A DNA stretch of 64,000 nt from Enterobacteria phage P922. A model generated the notes under the pieces. It saw only the letters and a program-made list of their open reading frames with translations, was not told the origin of the DNA and did not search any database. Where the stretch lies: the sequence record OR999189.1; one strand, written 5' to 3'. The translations under genes were made by a program, and so were the position numbers. Within the stretch, counting starts at the first letter, position 1, and each line of letters opens with the position of its first letter. Positions 30,298 to 53,374 of the stretch are shown one piece after another.

Positions 30298-31500
30298 ATG
30301 AAAGTATGTATTTTTATGGCTCGAGGTCTTGAAGGTTGTGGTGTAACTAAATTTTCTCTTGAGCAGCGTGATTGGTTTATTAAAAATGGTCATGAAGTAA
30401 CTTTGGTTTATGCTAAAGATAAATCATTTACTCGTAATTGCGCGCATGATTATAAGTCATTTTCAATTCCGGTTTTATTGGCAAAAGAATACGATAAAAC
30501 GCTTAAGCTGGTAAATGATTGTGATATTCTAGTTATCAATTCAGTTCCTGCTACTTCAGTCGAAGAAGACACAATTAATAACTATAAAAAAATTATTGAT
30601 AACATTAAACCTTCGGTTCGTGTTGTAGTTTATCAGCATGACCATTCTTCTCTTTCTTTGCGTCGAAATTTGGGATTAGAAGAAACTGTTCGTCGAGCTG
30701 ATGTTATTTTTAGCCATTCTGATAATGGTGACTTTAATAAAGTTTTGATGAAAGAATGGTATCCGGAAACTGTTTCTTTGTTTGATGATATTGAAGAAGC
30801 ACCGACCGTATATAACTTTCAGCCTCCTATGGATATTGCGAAGGTTCGATCAACCTACTGGAAAGATGTTTCTGAAATTAACATGAATATCAACCGTTGG
30901 ATTGGTCGTACTACTACATGGAAAGGCTTTTATCAGATGTTTGATTTTCATGAAAAACATCTTAAACCTGCAGGACTAAGTACTATTATGGAAGGTCTGG
31001 AACGTTCTCCAGCATTTATTCCTATTAAAGAAAAAGGAATTCCATACGAGTATTATCGTCTTCATCAAGTAGACCAAATTAAAATTGCTCCTAATTTGCC
31101 AACGCAAATTCTCGACCGTTATGTAAATAGCGAAATGCTTGAACGCATGAGTAAATCCGGATTTGGTTATCAGCTGAGTAAATTAGATAAAAAATATCTA
31201 CAGCGTTCTTTAGAATATACTCATCTCGAGCTTGGTGCATGCGGAACAATTCCAGTATTTTGGAAATCTACTGGCGAAAATTTAAAATTCCGTGTTGATA
31301 ATACTCCGTTAATTTCTCATGATAGCGGTATCGTTTGGTTTGATGAAAATGACATGGAATCAACATTTGAACGTATTAAAGAACTGTCATCTGACCGAGC
31401 TCTTTATGACCGTGAGCGAGAAAAAGCGTATGAATTTTTGTATCAACATCAAGATTCAAGCTTCTGCTTTAAAGAACAGTTTGACATTATTACAAAATAA
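30298..31500 (+). CDS. agt: DNA alpha-glucosyltransferase
   Basis: 400 aa, MKVCIFMARGLEGCGVTKFSLEQRDWFIKNGHEVTLVYAKDKSF... matches T4 alpha-GT as I recall it. Confidence 0.93.
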   Translation: MKVCIFMARGLEGCGVTKFSLEQRDWFIKNGHEVTLVYAKDKSFTRNCAHDYKSFSIPVLLAKEYDKTLKLVNDCDILVINSVPATSVEEDTINNYKKIIDNIKPSVRVVVYQHDHSSLSLRRNLGLEETVRRADVIFSHSDNGDFNKVLMKEWYPETVSLFDDIEEAPTVYNFQPPMDIAKVRSTYWKDVSEINMNINRWIGRTTTWKGFYQMFDFHEKHLKPAGLSTIMEGLERSPAFIPIKEKGIPYEYYRLHQVDQIKIAPNLPTQILDRYVNSEMLERMSKSGFGYQLSKLDKKYLQRSLEYTHLELGACGTIPVFWKSTGENLKFRVDNTPLISHDSGIVWFDENDMESTFERIKELSSDRALYDREREKAYEFLYQHQDSSFCFKEQFDIITK

Positions 31501-31539: not shown

Positions 31540-31680
31540 ATGATATTTCTTGGATATGTGATACTTTTTCTTGCATTTTATCTATTCACTAGAGCATGTT
31601 GGATTGGATTCTTTAGCACTCCAGATGGATTTATTTCAATAATTTTATTTTGCATTTCAATGACGGTTCTTGATATATGA
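31540..31680 (+). CDS. 46-aa hydrophobic peptide
   Basis: MIFLGYVILFLAFYLFTRACWIGFFSTPDGFISIILFCISMTVLDI; ATGA overlap with following GIY-YIG gene. Confidence 0.35.
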   Translation: MIFLGYVILFLAFYLFTRACWIGFFSTPDGFISIILFCISMTVLDI

Positions 31681-32300
31681 AAAAATATATAACTTATTTA
31701 ACAATATATAGTGGAGATAAACTTCCTCCTTTTTATATTGGATCTACATCTTTAGACAGGCATTTAGCCGGATATCATGGATCAGTTTTATCTAAAAAGT
31801 ATAAGAAAATTTATAATGAAGAACTTTCAAATAACCCACATTTATTTGATTCATGCATTTTAGATGAATTTGATACGCGCGAAGAAGCTATTAAATGCGA
31901 GCTATATTATCAACGTTTGCATGATGCGGTTAAAAATCCATTGTTCTTTAATATGTCATATGCTGCTCCAAAAGGTTCATTTGGAAGAGATATTAAAGGA
32001 CAAAATCATCCATTATATGGTTCTCATAATTGTAAAGGAAACATACATTCACATGACCCATTAACAGGAAAATCTGCCTTTTTACCATATATTCCAGAAG
32101 GTTATGTAAAAGGAAGGTCAAATAAATTTAAAGCTTCATCACATAATAAAGGTAAAAAATGGTATAATAATGGAGTTAAGCAAATGTTATGTCATGAACC
32201 TCCTGGTCCTGAATGGACAAAAGGAAAAATTAAAGAACTAGTTTCAAAAGCAGCTAAATTAGGATGGAAAAGATACCATGAAAATATTAAACTTGGGTGA
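31677..32300 (+). CDS. GIY-YIG homing endonuclease (Seg-like, free-standing)
   Basis: ITYLTIYSGDKLPPFYIGSTS...R...E...N GIY-YIG pattern; Lys/Gly-rich C-terminal region. Confidence 0.7.
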   Translation: MKKYITYLTIYSGDKLPPFYIGSTSLDRHLAGYHGSVLSKKYKKIYNEELSNNPHLFDSCILDEFDTREEAIKCELYYQRLHDAVKNPLFFNMSYAAPKGSFGRDIKGQNHPLYGSHNCKGNIHSHDPLTGKSAFLPYIPEGYVKGRSNKFKASSHNKGKKWYNNGVKQMLCHEPPGPEWTKGKIKELVSKAAKLGWKRYHENIKLG

Positions 32301-42321: not shown

Positions 42322-42573
42322 ATGGAAACTTTAGTAGCAGGTTCAATTTTTATGGTTTTAGTTTCAGGCGTGTTGGCTATTATTATATACATGCTTCCGT
42401 GGTTCATCGCCTTGATGCGTGGGTCAAAATCGACAGTAGGAATCTTTTTCACGTCTTTACTGTTTAACTGGTCAATTATTGGTTGGTTTATTACCTTTAT
42501 TTGGTCAATTGCGGGTGAAACTAAAAAATCTGTACAGCAAAATCAAGTAATTATCATCAGAGAGAAGGAATGA
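42322..42573 (+). CDS. imm: superinfection immunity membrane protein Imm
   Basis: 83 aa, two hydrophobic helices; matches T4 Imm in size and position. Confidence 0.75.
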   Translation: METLVAGSIFMVLVSGVLAIIIYMLPWFIALMRGSKSTVGIFFTSLLFNWSIIGWFITFIWSIAGETKKSVQQNQVIIIREKE

Positions 42574-42719
42574 AAAGCAAAATTTTAGCAGTATTGCTTT
42601 TAATCTTGATGATTATAATAAGTATATACTATAGCGTAACAGTTCCTTGTATGATTCCAACGCTTATTATAGGGTGGAGTTTATTACTGTTACAAGTTAA
42701 ATATGAATGCATCAATTGA
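42570..42719 (+). CDS. 49-aa membrane peptide
   Basis: MKSKILAVLLLILMIIISIYYSVTVPCMIPTLIIGWSLLLLQVKYECIN; GAAGGA RBS; ATGA overlap with imm stop. Confidence 0.35.
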   Translation: MKSKILAVLLLILMIIISIYYSVTVPCMIPTLIIGWSLLLLQVKYECIN

Positions 42720-42726
42720 GGTTTAA

Positions 42727-43467
42727 ATGATTAACGATTATATGACAGTTGAAGAAATCCGTCTTGATTTGGGTCTTGCATTAAAGGAAAAAGATTTCGT
42801 AATTGATAAAACCGGTGTTAAAACTATTGAAATTATTGGTGCATCATTTGTAGCAGATGAACCTTTTATTTTTGGCGCTCTTAATGATGAATACATTCAG
42901 CGTGAACTTGAATGGTATAAGTCTCAAAGTTTGTTTGTTAAAGATATTCCAGGTGAAACACCAAAGATTTGGCAGCAGGTAGCATCTTCTAAAGGCGAAA
43001 TTAACTCGAATTATGGTTGGGCCATCTGGTCAGAAGATAACTATGCCCAATATGATATGTGTTTAGCTGAACTTGGTCAAAATCCTGATTCTCGACGTGG
43101 TATCATGATTTATACTCGTCCATCCATGCAGTTTGACTACAATAAAGATGGCATGTCAGATTTCATGTGTACGAATACAGTACAGTATCTGATTCGTGAT
43201 AAGAAAGTCAATGCAGTAGTAAGCATGCGTTCAAATGACGTGGTCTTCGGATTCCGTAATGATTATGCATGGCAAAAATACGTACTAGATAAATTAGTAT
43301 CTGATTTGAATGCAGGTGATTCAATTCGTCAGTATAAAGCAGGTTCCATTATATGGAATGTCGGAAGCCTTCATGTGTATTCCCGTCATTTTTATTTGGT
43401 TGACCATTGGTGGAAAACTGGCGAAACTCATATTGCGAAAAAAGATTATAACGGTGAGTGGAAATGA
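42727..43467 (+). CDS. 42: dCMP hydroxymethylase gp42
   Basis: 246 aa, thymidylate-synthase-like; between imm and the glucosyltransferase. Confidence 0.93.
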   Translation: MINDYMTVEEIRLDLGLALKEKDFVIDKTGVKTIEIIGASFVADEPFIFGALNDEYIQRELEWYKSQSLFVKDIPGETPKIWQQVASSKGEINSNYGWAIWSEDNYAQYDMCLAELGQNPDSRRGIMIYTRPSMQFDYNKDGMSDFMCTNTVQYLIRDKKVNAVVSMRSNDVVFGFRNDYAWQKYVLDKLVSDLNAGDSIRQYKAGSIIWNVGSLHVYSRHFYLVDHWWKTGETHIAKKDYNGEWK

Positions 43468-44306
43468 TTCAATTCGTAATTCCAAGTTATCAACGCGTAG
43501 GGGCAGTTTCTGCCCTTGATATGTTTCCATCTGATTATGAACCTCATATTGTAGTACGTAAACACGAAGAAAAAGCTTATTATGATGCTTATGGGTCTAG
43601 AGCTAAAATTATAACTATTCCTGATGATGTTAATGGAATTGCTGGTACTCGTAAAGCAATTACTGATATGTATGCAGGCCAACGAATCTGGATGATTGAT
43701 GATGATACTACTATTCGTATGAGTTCAATGCGAAAGAAAGATGATCGTCGTTGCGTAGATAAAATTAATCAATTAACTCGTGAACAGTTCTATGAATTGA
43801 TTCAATACGTTGAAGATGCCATGGATTGTGGGTATTATCACGGTCATGCTCGTCTACCTATTTTTAAAATTACTTCATCTTGGGGTAATTATCGTGAAAA
43901 TTCATATGGATTCACGAATACCTGGTATGACCTCGGAAAACTTACAACAGAACAAATTGGGTATGGAAAAATTGATTTATGCGAAGATATGTATGCATTT
44001 CTCAATTTAATTAATCAAGGTTATCCGCATTTGGCCTTGTTCAAATATCTGGTTGTATCTGGAAAAGCACAAGCTCCAGGCGGATGTAGCTCAATTCGTA
44101 GTAATTCTAAACATAATAGAGCTCTTGAGCAAATCAATAGAGAGTTTCCAGAGCAAGCTCGTTGGAAAACATCGAATATTGAAAAGAGAAAATCGTTGGG
44201 TGAAGAAGACGAGCCATTAAAGGTTCTTCGCATGTGTGTTTCGCGCAAAGAAAAATCAGAAGCGTTTCATAAGTTTAATGCTATTCATCCAATAGCAGTT
44301 GATTAA
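43464..44306 (+). CDS. glycosyltransferase at the beta-gt locus (non-T4 type)
   Basis: 280 aa, DxD-like WMIDDDTTI; does not resemble T4 beta-GT as I recall it. Confidence 0.6.
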   Translation: MIQFVIPSYQRVGAVSALDMFPSDYEPHIVVRKHEEKAYYDAYGSRAKIITIPDDVNGIAGTRKAITDMYAGQRIWMIDDDTTIRMSSMRKKDDRRCVDKINQLTREQFYELIQYVEDAMDCGYYHGHARLPIFKITSSWGNYRENSYGFTNTWYDLGKLTTEQIGYGKIDLCEDMYAFLNLINQGYPHLALFKYLVVSGKAQAPGGCSSIRSNSKHNRALEQINREFPEQARWKTSNIEKRKSLGEEDEPLKVLRMCVSRKEKSEAFHKFNAIHPIAVD

Positions 44307-44383
44307 TGCCTAAATTTATTGTGTTATAATTACTCTATCTTTAACCAGTGAGGAAAATATAATGATGCCTATGGAAAAAATGA

Positions 44384-45565
44384 ATGTCTATTGCAGATTT
44401 AAAATCCCGTTTGATTAAAGCTTCCACTTCTAAAATGACTGCTGAACTGACTACATCTAAATTCTTTAATGAAAAGGATGTAATCCGTACAAAAATCCCA
44501 ATGCTTAATATCGCTATTTCCGGTGCGATTGATGGTGGAATGCAGTCTGGTTTAACCATTTTTGCAGGTCCTTCTAAACACTTTAAATCAAATATGTCTT
44601 TGACTATGGTTGCGGCGTATTTGAACAAATATCCTGACGCGGTATGTTTATTCTATGATAGCGAATTTGGTATTACTCCAGCTTATTTGCGATCCATGGG
44701 AGTTGACCCGGAACGAGTAATTCATACACCAATTCAGTCAGTTGAACAGCTGAAAATTGATATGGTGAATCAGCTTGAAGCTATTGAGCGCGGTGAAAAA
44801 GTTATTGTATTCATCGACTCAATCGGTAATATGGCTTCTAAGAAAGAAACGGAAGATGCCTTGAATGAAAAATCTGTGGCAGATATGACTCGTGCTAAAT
44901 CACTGAAGTCATTATTCCGTATTGTTACTCCTTATTTTAGTATTAAAAACATTCCATGTGTTGCGGTTAACCATACAATTGAAACAATTGAAATGTTTAG
45001 TAAAACCGTGATGACAGGTGGTACAGGCGTAATGTATTCGGCTGATACTGTATTCATTATCGGTAAGCGCCAGATTAAAGATGGTTCTGATCTTCAGGGG
45101 TATCAATTTGTTCTAAATGTAGAAAAATCTCGTACTGTTAAAGAAAAAAGTAAATTCTTTATTGATGTTAAATTTGACGGTGGTATCGATCCTTATTCTG
45201 GATTGTTAGATATGGCTCTTGAATTAGGATTTGTAGTAAAACCTAAAAATGGTTGGTATGCTCGTGAATTTCTTGACGAAGAAACCGGTGAGATGATTCG
45301 CGAAGAAAAATCTTGGCGTGCAAAAGATACCAATTGCACTACATTCTGGGGTCCTTTATTTAAGCATCAACCATTCCGAGATGCTATTAAACGTGCTTAT
45401 CAGTTAGGTGCTATTGATAGTAATGAAATTGTTGAAGCTGAAGTCGATGAATTGATTAACTCAAAGGTTGAAAAATTTAAATCTCCAGAAAGTAAAAGTA
45501 AATCAGCAGCTGATTTAGAAACTGACCTAGATCAGTTAAGTGATATGGAAGAATTTAATGAATAA
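44384..45565 (+). CDS. uvsX: recombinase UvsX (RecA-like)
   Basis: 393 aa, MSIADLKSRLIKASTS..., Walker A GPSKHFKS. Confidence 0.96.
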   Translation: MSIADLKSRLIKASTSKMTAELTTSKFFNEKDVIRTKIPMLNIAISGAIDGGMQSGLTIFAGPSKHFKSNMSLTMVAAYLNKYPDAVCLFYDSEFGITPAYLRSMGVDPERVIHTPIQSVEQLKIDMVNQLEAIERGEKVIVFIDSIGNMASKKETEDALNEKSVADMTRAKSLKSLFRIVTPYFSIKNIPCVAVNHTIETIEMFSKTVMTGGTGVMYSADTVFIIGKRQIKDGSDLQGYQFVLNVEKSRTVKEKSKFFIDVKFDGGIDPYSGLLDMALELGFVVKPKNGWYAREFLDEETGEMIREEKSWRAKDTNCTTFWGPLFKHQPFRDAIKRAYQLGAIDSNEIVEAEVDELINSKVEKFKSPESKSKSAADLETDLDQLSDMEEFNE

Positions 45566-49288: not shown

Positions 49289-50317
49289 ATGTCATCAATA
49301 CCTTGGATTGATAATGAGTTTGCATATCGTGCGTTAGCTCATTTACCTAAATTCACACAAGTAAATAATAGTTCAACTTTTAAATTACGGTTTAGATGCC
49401 CTGTTTGTGGAGATTCAAAAACCGATCAAAATAAAGCCCGTGGATGGTATTATGGTGATAACAATGAAGGAAATATTCACTGTTATAACTGTAACTATCA
49501 TGCGCCAATCGGAATATATTTAAAGGAGTTTGAACCTGATTTATATCGTGAGTATATCTTTGAAATAAGAAAAGAAAAAGGTAAAAGTCGTCCAGTAGAA
49601 AAACCTAAAGAACTTCCTAAACAACCTGAGAAGAAAATAATTAAATCTCTTCCGTCATGCATTAGATTAGATAAACTGGCGGAAGACCATCCAATTATAA
49701 AATACGTAAAAGCTCGCTGTATTCCAAAGGATAAATGGAAATATCTTTGGTTTACAACCGAATGGCCTAAATTGGTTAATAGTATAGCACCGGGAACATA
49801 TAAAAAGGAAATATCTGAGCCTCGTCTTGTTATTCCAATTTATAATGCTAATGGAAAAGCTGAGTCTTTTCAAGGACGTGCATTAAAGAAAGATGCTCCT
49901 CAAAAATATATCACCATCAAAGCTTATCCTGAGGCAACAAAAATCTATGGTGTTGAACGAGTTAAAGATGGTGATGTATATGTTTTAGAAGGACCTATAG
50001 ATTCACTTTTTATTGAAAATGGTATAGCTATTACAGGTGGTCAATTAGACCTAGAAATTGTTCCATTTAAAGATAGACGTGTGTGGGTTTTAGATAATGA
50101 ACCTCGTCATCCTGATACTATTAAACGAATGACTAAATTAGTTGATGCAGGAGAAAGGGTTATGTTTTGGGACAAATCTCCCTGGAAATCAAAAGATGTT
50201 AATGATATGATTAGAAAGGAAGGTGCAACCCCTGAACAAATTATGGAATATATGAAAAATAATATTGCGCAGGGGTTGATGGCTAAAATGCGGCTATCTA
50301 AATATGCTAAGATTTAA
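49289..50317 (+). CDS. 61: DNA primase gp61
   Basis: 342 aa; N-terminal zinc ribbon CPVCGDS...CYNCNYH. Confidence 0.93.
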   Translation: MSSIPWIDNEFAYRALAHLPKFTQVNNSSTFKLRFRCPVCGDSKTDQNKARGWYYGDNNEGNIHCYNCNYHAPIGIYLKEFEPDLYREYIFEIRKEKGKSRPVEKPKELPKQPEKKIIKSLPSCIRLDKLAEDHPIIKYVKARCIPKDKWKYLWFTTEWPKLVNSIAPGTYKKEISEPRLVIPIYNANGKAESFQGRALKKDAPQKYITIKAYPEATKIYGVERVKDGDVYVLEGPIDSLFIENGIAITGGQLDLEIVPFKDRRVWVLDNEPRHPDTIKRMTKLVDAGERVMFWDKSPWKSKDVNDMIRKEGATPEQIMEYMKNNIAQGLMAKMRLSKYAKI

Positions 50318-50514
50318 ATTAACCCAACTAAAGCAAATGCTAAATCTACGAATGTATCGAGAGTAATTACTGGAATATTAACGCCATGAGCAATAGCAAT
50401 TGGTGATAAAACAAAATTCCAGAGTAAAATTCCTATCATAGCAGAAATAGTAAAAGCTATACGTTTTTTATTACCTTTTATGGCATTAACAAGTGCCATT
50501 AATTTTTGTACCAT
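50314..50514 (-). CDS. small hydrophobic membrane protein on the opposite strand
   Basis: Only minus-strand ORF lying in an intergenic gap; GGAGG 4 nt upstream of ATG on the minus strand; two hydrophobic segments. Confidence 0.5.
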   Translation of the reverse strand: MVQKLMALVNAIKGNKKRIAFTISAMIGILLWNFVLSPIAIAHGVNIPVITLDTFVDLAFALVGLI

Positions 50515-50585: not shown

Positions 50586-51104
50586 ATGGCTTACTTTAAT
50601 GAATGTTCGCAACTGATCGAAGGCGCTGATAAAGCTCAAAATGAATACTGGGATATTCTCGGTGACGAAAAAGACCCACTGCAAGTTATGCTTGATATGC
50701 AGAAATCTTTGCAGGTTCGTTTAGCTAAAGATAAACCTGAATATAACCGTCATCCTGATGATTTGGCTACTGCAGGTGAAGTTGTTGATTGGCTGCGTAA
50801 TCAGAAAGATTATATTGACGATGAATTCCGTGAACTTCTGACTTCTCTTGGTGGTATGAGCAATGGTGAAAAAGATGCATCTGCTGTATGGAAGCCTTGG
50901 AAGTCGCAGCATGGTGAACGTCGTGAAACTCTGATTACTGATTTGTCTCCACAAGACCAGTTGGAAATTAAATTCGAAATGATTGATATTCTTCATTTCG
51001 TTCTGAACATGTTCCAAGGTCTCGGCCTTACTGCTGAAGAAATCTTTAAACTTTATTATCTGAAGAATGCTGAAAACTTCGCTCGTCAAGACCGAGGTTA
51101 TTAA
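50586..51104 (+). CDS. 56: dCTPase/dUTPase gp56
   Basis: 172 aa beginning MAYFNECSQLIEG; ATG 50586 within track ORF 50493..51104. Confidence 0.9.
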   Translation: MAYFNECSQLIEGADKAQNEYWDILGDEKDPLQVMLDMQKSLQVRLAKDKPEYNRHPDDLATAGEVVDWLRNQKDYIDDEFRELLTSLGGMSNGEKDASAVWKPWKSQHGERRETLITDLSPQDQLEIKFEMIDILHFVLNMFQGLGLTAEEIFKLYYLKNAENFARQDRGY

Positions 51105-51728: not shown

Positions 51729-52066
51729 TGTTTATCTTTAATTGGTTTAAAAGTTTCTTTACGGATTTTTTCTCTACAACTCCCGGAGAAGGTGTAGTTC
51801 CTATTTCAAATGACTACCTTCCTTTAACTGTAGTTGAATATGTTTATATGGGAGATGGAACAGTAGAAGCAGTTACTATGACTTATGAAGAAGCCCAAGA
51901 ATATTATAAAAATCCTTGGCGCTGGTCAACACCTACATCATCTAATACGCAGAATACACAGTCTAGTTCTGATTCATATGACACTAATGTTCCTGTTCAT
52001 GTATGGGCAGGCGATTCGTGTGGAAGTTCTTGTGATTCTAGTTGTTCATCTACATCTTGTGATTGA
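51728..52066 (+). CDS. hypothetical protein with Ser/Cys-rich C-terminal tail
   Basis: Tail [17 protein letters not shown]; hydrophobic N-terminus. Confidence 0.45.
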
Positions 52067-52560
52067 GGAAAATTATGGAAGCGATTTTGTTTGAAATGTA
52101 TATTAGCAGTAATAGTTTGTCGTTTGCTAAAGACGTTCCAATTACCGTAGCAGTAATGATTGATAAGGGTTATTGTGACCCAATGTATCTCGTAGAAAAT
52201 TTCGTTTCAATGCCAGTTCCAGAAGATGCTGAAATAAAACTTAAAAAGATTGGTATTATTGAAACTGTGCCAAATATTCCGTTTAGAGCAATTGAAGCAT
52301 TTACTAAATCAGAATACATTAATGTTAGCGCAGAACAATATAATGATAAACCTTTATCTTTTTATTCGTATGATTCAGTATATAGTTGGAAAATAGATAA
52401 AGGAAATAAATTTATAATTGCGAGTGAAGATGCTTTATCATACTTTATTTCTTCTATATGGAATAGTTTACATCCAAATTTGCTAAAAATTCATGAATTT
52501 GATGATGCTCCTACTGTTGTTTTAGGTAAAACAAATGAAAGTTCTGAAGAAAATGCTTGA
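52063..52560 (+). CDS. hypothetical protein
   Basis: ORF track. Confidence 0.5.
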
Positions 52561-52891: not shown

Positions 52892-53374
52892 ATGATTGAA
52901 GTAGCAAAACATTATTCAATAGAATTTATGTCTAAAGAAGGTAAATCAGTAAATACACTTGATAAAAAGTGCTCATTAATTATTCCTTTAGCAGAAAATC
53001 CGGATATTTTAATTAAAGATATAAAAGAAAGAAAATATCCAGAAAATGTTATTCTAATTATAAAGCATACTGAAGATATTTTGCAGAATACTGATTCACC
53101 GTTTTCTTCTTCTGAAGCTTTAACTATTAAAGGATATAAAAGAGCTCATGAATATGGTCTTTTTGACCTGTTTGAAGATGATAACGTTAAATTAGCACTT
53201 AATTTAGCAGGTCAACTTTCTAAAAGTAAAACATTCATTATTGAAGATATTAAAGATATAAATGCATTTGTTAAGATGGTCTGGGCTCATTTTGATGTTG
53301 GACTACGCTGGAGAATGTCCGAAGAAGAAAGAAAAATTATTGAAGCTAATCGTTATTTTGGTTTTTATCGCTAG
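52892..53374 (+). CDS. hypothetical protein (mrh position by order and size)
   Basis: 160 aa, upstream of modB. Confidence 0.45.

Follow-up and report, generated by a model that had tools for sequence, protein, structure and literature searches.

Which enzyme occupies the slot between gene 42 and uvsX in Enterobacteria phage P922 (sequence record OR999189.1), where T4 carries the gene of its beta-glucosyltransferase (beta-GT)? Which host defences can attack a T-even phage depends on how its hmC is glycosylated. A correct annotation of the gene in this slot would predict modification state and defence sensitivity, which is useful for the prediction of host range in phage therapy. An earlier note on this DNA had placed here a non-T4 glycosyltransferase of about 280 aa with a DxD-like motif (WMIDDDTTI), of the kind found in T2 and T6. 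Here, we examine this reading within the window, that is, the whole stretch of 64,000 nucleotides that was analysed.

The open reading frame (ORF) is located at 43464-44306 on the plus strand, begins with ATG, ends with TAA, is intact and encodes 280 aa, in which WMIDDDTTI corresponds to residues 76-84 (nt 43689-43715). Upstream of it lies gene 42 (42727-43467, plus strand), encoding the dCMP hydroxymethylase that makes the hmC precursor, with 95% aa identity to T4 gp42. Downstream, after a gap of 77 bp, lies the uvsX recombinase gene (44384-45565, plus strand), an ORF that is annotated as ‘recombinase’ in the corresponding locus of Shigella phage SF2-1 and that aligns to T4 uvsX from 44396. 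Thus, according to the ORF and the annotation, the earlier note had the coordinates, the length, the motif and both neighbours right. The ATG and the stop of gene 42 overlap as ATGA, the equivalent ATG is the annotated start in T2, T6 (AP018814) and SF2-1, and the N-terminus MIQFVIPSYQR is kept even in relatives of only about 20% identity. Therefore, ATG 43464 is considered the real start. The automatic ORF start, GTG at 43458, is two codons earlier and was dropped in favour of this ATG based on conservation and annotation. Because of the ATGA overlap, we propose that gene 42 and the ORF are probably co-transcribed and translationally coupled. A scan of 42500-44600 returned 12 promoter-like sites against 9.5 expected and one terminator-like site against 1.1 expected, and an Rfam scan of the whole 64-kb window returned zero matches. 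On the other side of gene 42, between imm and gene 42, there is a 49-aa hydrophobic ORF (42570-42719, plus strand; phrog_3610, function unknown), which is unannotated both in the SF2-1 locus and in the corresponding gap of T4.

Could the protein be a T4 beta-GT ortholog that has diverged strongly but continues to put one beta-glucose on hmC? The two genes do share the genomic slot. However, the comparison of the protein with T4 beta-GT (from NC_000866) by BLASTP gave nothing above noise (lowest E 3.3), and a phmmer search with the protein against all PDB sequences gave nothing at E<=10; a crystal structure of T4 beta-GT exists in the PDB (PMC13216743). Searched by tblastn against the whole window, T4 beta-GT had no match, either; the earlier note, too, had seen no resemblance between the two proteins. 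The fold classes also appear to differ, being GT-B in T4 beta-GT (PMC13216743) and GT-A in the AlphaFold2 (AF2) model of the P922 protein; T4 beta-GT is absent among the listed structure matches of this model, with which Foldseek concurs. That is, the protein resembles T4 beta-GT neither in sequence nor in predicted fold. In addition, the blastn homology to T4 ends at 43449, with six codons of gene 42 still to come, and returns at 44396, four codons inside uvsX, so that a segment of 946 bp (43450-44395, plus strand) replaces the 1941 bp that hold beta-gt and segA in T4. Since the homology breaks at the gene borders, the sequence comparison indicates that the slot is a cassette replacement rather than the result of divergence from T4 beta-gt. 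Finally, no beta-glucosyl-hmC was detected by HPLC/MS in T2/T6-like isolates (PMC13390438). By the comparisons of sequence, fold and segment borders, a diverged beta-GT is refuted.

To which family, then, does the protein belong? It matches PHROG 842, ‘beta-glucosyl-HMC-alpha-glucosyltransferase’, over its whole length (E 2e-88), and the Pfam family PF20691, TAGT (TET-associated glycosyltransferase), with 38.3 bits over profile positions 2-205 of 205, the gathering threshold being 27.5 bits. The alignment to the T2/T6 enzyme, which the earlier note had proposed as a check, shows full-length protein identities of 98% with T2 and 97% with T6, whose genes are syntenic, while T4 beta-GT does not align. 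At the DNA level, the mean column identity between the T2/T6 genes and that of P922 is 98%, without any difference in the intergenic region downstream. The identities, the PHROG match and the common locus bear out the suggested kinship with T2/T6-type phages, and the ORF is very probably the ortholog of the T2/T6 beta-glucosyl-HMC-alpha-glucosyltransferase gene, variously called ba-gt, ggt, g-gt or TAGT (ba-gt hereafter). We take the enzyme to be EC 2.4.1.28, and the T2 and T6 genes were reportedly first cloned by Winkler and Rüger, in Nucleic Acids Res in 1993.

How common is this arrangement? By megablast, ba-gt was found in 479 GenBank phage records, mostly from Escherichia or Shigella phages and many already so annotated; the copy of SF2-1 is 100% identical in nucleotides, and most others are 95-99% identical. 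The gene is full length, with at least 90% DNA identity, in 476 of these records, and it is therefore not a chance ORF. A scan of IMG/VR for ba-gt alleles, a small sample, gave five loci, all full length and 97-99% identical, and 12 relatives were retrieved from 5.8 billion proteins. A survey published in 2026 described alpha-GT (or beta-GT) together with TAGT as the usual combination, with the T4-type pair of alpha-GT and beta-GT in only 6 of 753 phages (PMC13216743). The unusualness implied by the label ‘non-T4’ in the earlier note is consequently not upheld: the arrangement of alpha-GT and TAGT is common among Tequatrovirus genomes, and T4 is the exception. Published work already covers the gene and its locus as well as the fold and function of its product, and for P922 a standard annotation is confirmed.

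In the AF2 model, the protein has a single Rossmann-like domain of the GT-A type, and its structure matches are GT2-family GT-A glycosyltransferases (AvpGT 9jma, TarP 6h1j, TarS 5tze and WrtF 9omh). The match values are 14.4 for WrtF, 13.3 for AvpGT, 12.9 for RmlT, 12.6 for both TarP and Cellulose synthase, and 12.3 for TarS. TAGT has also been modelled as GT-A, sister to GT2 (PMC13216743). The assignment to GT-A relies on the AF2 model, because the single-sequence search of the PDB was empty and the match of the family profile was marginal: the profile built from 51 members hit the GT2 enzyme AvpGT (9jma) with E 0.0098, in an alignment that spans the IPSYxR/IPTYNR motif (VIIPTYNR in 9jma) and the DDD motif. 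The model confidence is below 50 at residues 132-149 and 202-206, and the acceptor-binding surface is therefore ill-defined in the model.

The same 51 divergent members, which are 19-63% identical to the P922 protein and all contain PF20691, were used to find conserved residues. I6, R11, D80, D81, D175, G186 and G207 are invariant, while P7, R63, D79 (at least 90%), G206, R212 and P229 are near-invariant; the P922 protein has every one of them. Based on this conservation and on the analogy with GT2 enzymes, roles could be proposed for some of these residues. D79-D80-D81 (43698-43706, plus strand), the DxD motif, follows the beta-strand 74-77 of the model and aligns with the DDD of 9jma; it would hold Mg2+ or Mn2+ and the UDP diphosphate. 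R11 (43494-43496, plus strand) belongs to the IPSYxR motif, a GT2-like nucleotide-binding motif aligned to VIIPTYNR in 9jma, and this arginine and the motif may bind the nucleotide. D175 (43986-43988, plus strand) is found in a C-E-D motif at the N-terminus of the modelled helix 174-184, and is the predicted catalytic base, which would act as the general base on the O6 hydroxyl of the acceptor glucose. For D175, the analogue is the ED/TED motif found in GT2 enzymes, and the residue pairs with ‘EED’ of 9jma in a second alignment segment that is non-significant. Taken together, the enzyme would be an inverting, metal-dependent GT-A glycosyltransferase with a GT2-like mechanism, inverting because the published donor is alpha and the published product is beta.

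Does P922 also encode the enzymes that make the acceptor? Both gp42 and the DNA alpha-glucosyltransferase (alpha-GT) are encoded in the window. The alpha-gt gene is located at 30298-31500 on the plus strand, and its product matches PDB 1xv5 with a phmmer E of 7e-257 and the T4 AGT structures 1xv5, 1y8z and 1y6f over residues 1-400; the T4-like alpha-gt that the earlier note had seen at 30298 is thus a full-length gene of the T4 type. Between alpha-gt and gene 47, there is a 207-aa ORF (31677-32300, plus strand) resembling GIY-YIG/Seg-like homing endonucleases (phrog_10820, E 2e-93, and a weak Pfam GIY-YIG match), which shares 23 bp with the beginning of gene 47. Gene 56 (50586-51104, plus strand), encoding the dCTPase/dUTPase that excludes unmodified C, was identified by the Pfam family dUTPase_2 and by its position, which matches that of T4 gene 56; its start was inferred as the ATG after the Shine-Dalgarno-like GAAAGGAAAAATA. 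In the pathway proposed here, gene 42 would make hm-dCMP and gp56 would remove dCTP, so that the phage DNA would contain hmC. After replication, alpha-GT would add an alpha-linked glucose to most hmC residues, yielding the acceptor for the ba-gt enzyme, which would then use UDP-glucose to attach another glucose to O6 of the first one in beta linkage, giving gentiobiosyl-hmC. What the present analysis establishes is the orthology, the synteny, the fold class, the motif conservation and the presence of the partner genes; the reaction and the role in defence evasion are taken from the literature on T2/T6 and T6-like isolates.

It may be asked whether the enzyme could have another specificity, that is, use a different sugar donor or glycosylate hmC directly as the primary transferase. 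The TAGT family has many and divergent members, 2280 of 1.84 billion cluster representatives matching the profile at E<=0.001, and 288 of 753 phages have a TAGT homolog without alpha-GT or beta-GT (PMC13216743), which implies that some members must act differently. However, the P922 protein is 97-98% identical to the T2/T6 enzymes, of which that of T6 has been examined by gene deletion, it is encoded at the same locus, and the acceptor-producing alpha-GT is present. Consequently, a different specificity is very improbable, and the T2/T6 reaction is the preferred reading.

In T2 and T6, beta-1,6-glucosyl-alpha-glucosyl (gentiobiosyl) hmC is produced by homologous ba-gt enzymes and accounts for ~5% and 72%, respectively (PMC6024577). 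T6-like Tequatrovirus isolates have alpha-GT and a TAGT that is syntenic with T4 beta-GT, and HPLC/MS revealed hmC, alpha-glucosyl-hmC and alpha-gentiobiosyl-hmC at about 1:2:2 in some of them, and about one-third hmC and two-thirds gentiobiosyl in others; for the Durham isolates, the gentiobiosyl-hmC fraction is ~40% or ~67% (PMC13390438). The extent of the second glucosylation therefore varies widely, from ~5% to 72%, among phages with near-identical enzymes. For P922, the orthology and the partner genes suggest that gentiobiosyl-hmC would be the outcome in virion DNA; this DNA may be mostly gentiobiosylated.

Should P922 rather be expected to carry a weak, T2-like or even inactive allele, with virion DNA that is essentially mono-alpha-glucosylated and has about 25% naked hmC? 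The T2 protein, which is 98% identical, gentiobiosylates just ~5% of hmC, and ba-gt lesions do occur in stock sequences (T6 MH550421 and T6 AP018814). Yet the ORF of P922 is intact and keeps all the invariant and near-invariant residues, R11 included, and natural isolates of the T2/T6-like type have been measured at 40-67% gentiobiosyl-hmC. A weak or inactive allele is accordingly considered unlikely, and an active ortholog of the T2/T6 enzyme remains the preferred reading.

The lesions in the two T6 records are as follows. In MH550421 (L003:3138-3980, minus strand), there is a TAG at ba-gt codon 10, and the gene is annotated from Met20 with 261 aa, a start that would remove the IPSYxR strand. 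In AP018814 (L005:3135-3974, minus strand), one Asp of DDD is lost in frame, leaving 279 aa. Either mutation of the stocks or an error in sequencing may account for them, and each lesion would be expected to impair the enzyme.

The T2 protein (L004:3283-4125, minus strand) differs from that of P922 at six positions, among them R11H, which falls on the arginine that is invariant in the 51 divergent TAGT members. When the N-terminal 22 residues of the T2 protein were searched by tblastn against GenBank phages, they were found exactly in eight of the 683 matching records, namely seven T2 records and SV76, the length of which (163,826 bp) is exactly that of T2. Another 417 records matched at 95-99% identity, which equals one mismatch in 22. 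The substitution is the only mildly new lead of this work: as a tentative candidate explanation, which we hold to be possible rather than probable, the single T2-specific R11H might cause the difference in gentiobiosyl-hmC between T2 (~5%) and T6 (~72%). No statement of this explanation for the low gentiobiosylation of T2 was found in the literature examined. If it is true, T2 carries a hypomorphic laboratory allele, and phages with R11, like P922, are ‘T6-type’, with gentiobiose on most glucosylated cytosines. R11 in the P922 protein would then suggest that this phage is T6-like. Under the same condition, R11 would serve as a sequence-based predictor of resistance to the defences specific for alpha-glucosyl-hmC, such as Brig1 and BapA.

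Deletion of ba-gt in T6 leads to DNA with alpha-glucosyl-hmC only, which is degraded by Brig1, and the mutant is restricted more than wild-type T6 (PMC11078745). Similarly, the DNA of a T6 g-gt deletion is a substrate of the deglucosylase BapA, which is unable to take glucose off gentiobiose (bioRxiv 10.64898/2026.02.25.707755). Gentiobiosyl-hmC DNA resists Brig1 in vitro as well as BapA, while GmrSD still targets it (PMC11078745; PMC13216743; bioRxiv 10.64898/2026.02.25.707755).

In the Durham study, a Dam-like gene was associated with a lower gentiobiosyl fraction, not necessarily as its cause. No Dam homolog was found in the 64-kb window of the ~168-kb P922 genome. The slot of T4 dam, between the primase gene 61 and gene 56, is occupied by a 66-aa hydrophobic ORF (50314-50514, minus strand; phrog_2024, function unknown) with a strong Shine-Dalgarno sequence. 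The window also contains two paralogous Mrh-like genes on the plus strand, at 52063-52560 and 52892-53374 (Pfam T4_MRH, E 1.6e-42 and 3.9e-37), while a single mrh is annotated in the corresponding region of T4.

How does the P922 enzyme compare with the known systems? With T4 beta-GT, it shares the genomic slot, the UDP-glucose donor and the beta linkage. However, the sequences are unrelated, a GT-B fold stands against a predicted GT-A fold, and T4 beta-GT acts directly on hmC, whereas the ba-gt enzyme acts on alpha-glucosyl-hmC; in addition, beta-gt in T4 is followed by the homing-endonuclease gene segA, which is absent at the P922 locus. The GT2-family GT-A enzymes (9jma, 6h1j, 5tze and 9omh) are related to the P922 protein at only 7-16% sequence identity, and the latter differs from them in its DNA-linked glucose acceptor, the family-specific GGCSxxR motif and a C-terminal extension. 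The members of the TAGT family (PF20691) share the invariant R11, DDD, D175 and GG..R motifs with it. The neighbour in P922 is a dCMP hydroxymethylase of the thymidylate-synthase type (gene 42) rather than a TET/JBP dioxygenase, and the P922 enzyme has as its acceptor a sugar that the base already carries. The closest counterparts are the T2/T6 enzymes, with the same 280 aa, the same position between gene 42 and uvsX, the same ATGA overlap and the same co-occurrence with alpha-GT. From their consensus, the P922 protein differs by four conservative substitutions (T23S, E33K, R92K and V101I), and none of the resulting residues S23, K33, K92 and I101 is at a position conserved in the 51 family members. 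Free of the lesions found in the two T6 records, it has R11 as in T6, whereas T2 has H11.
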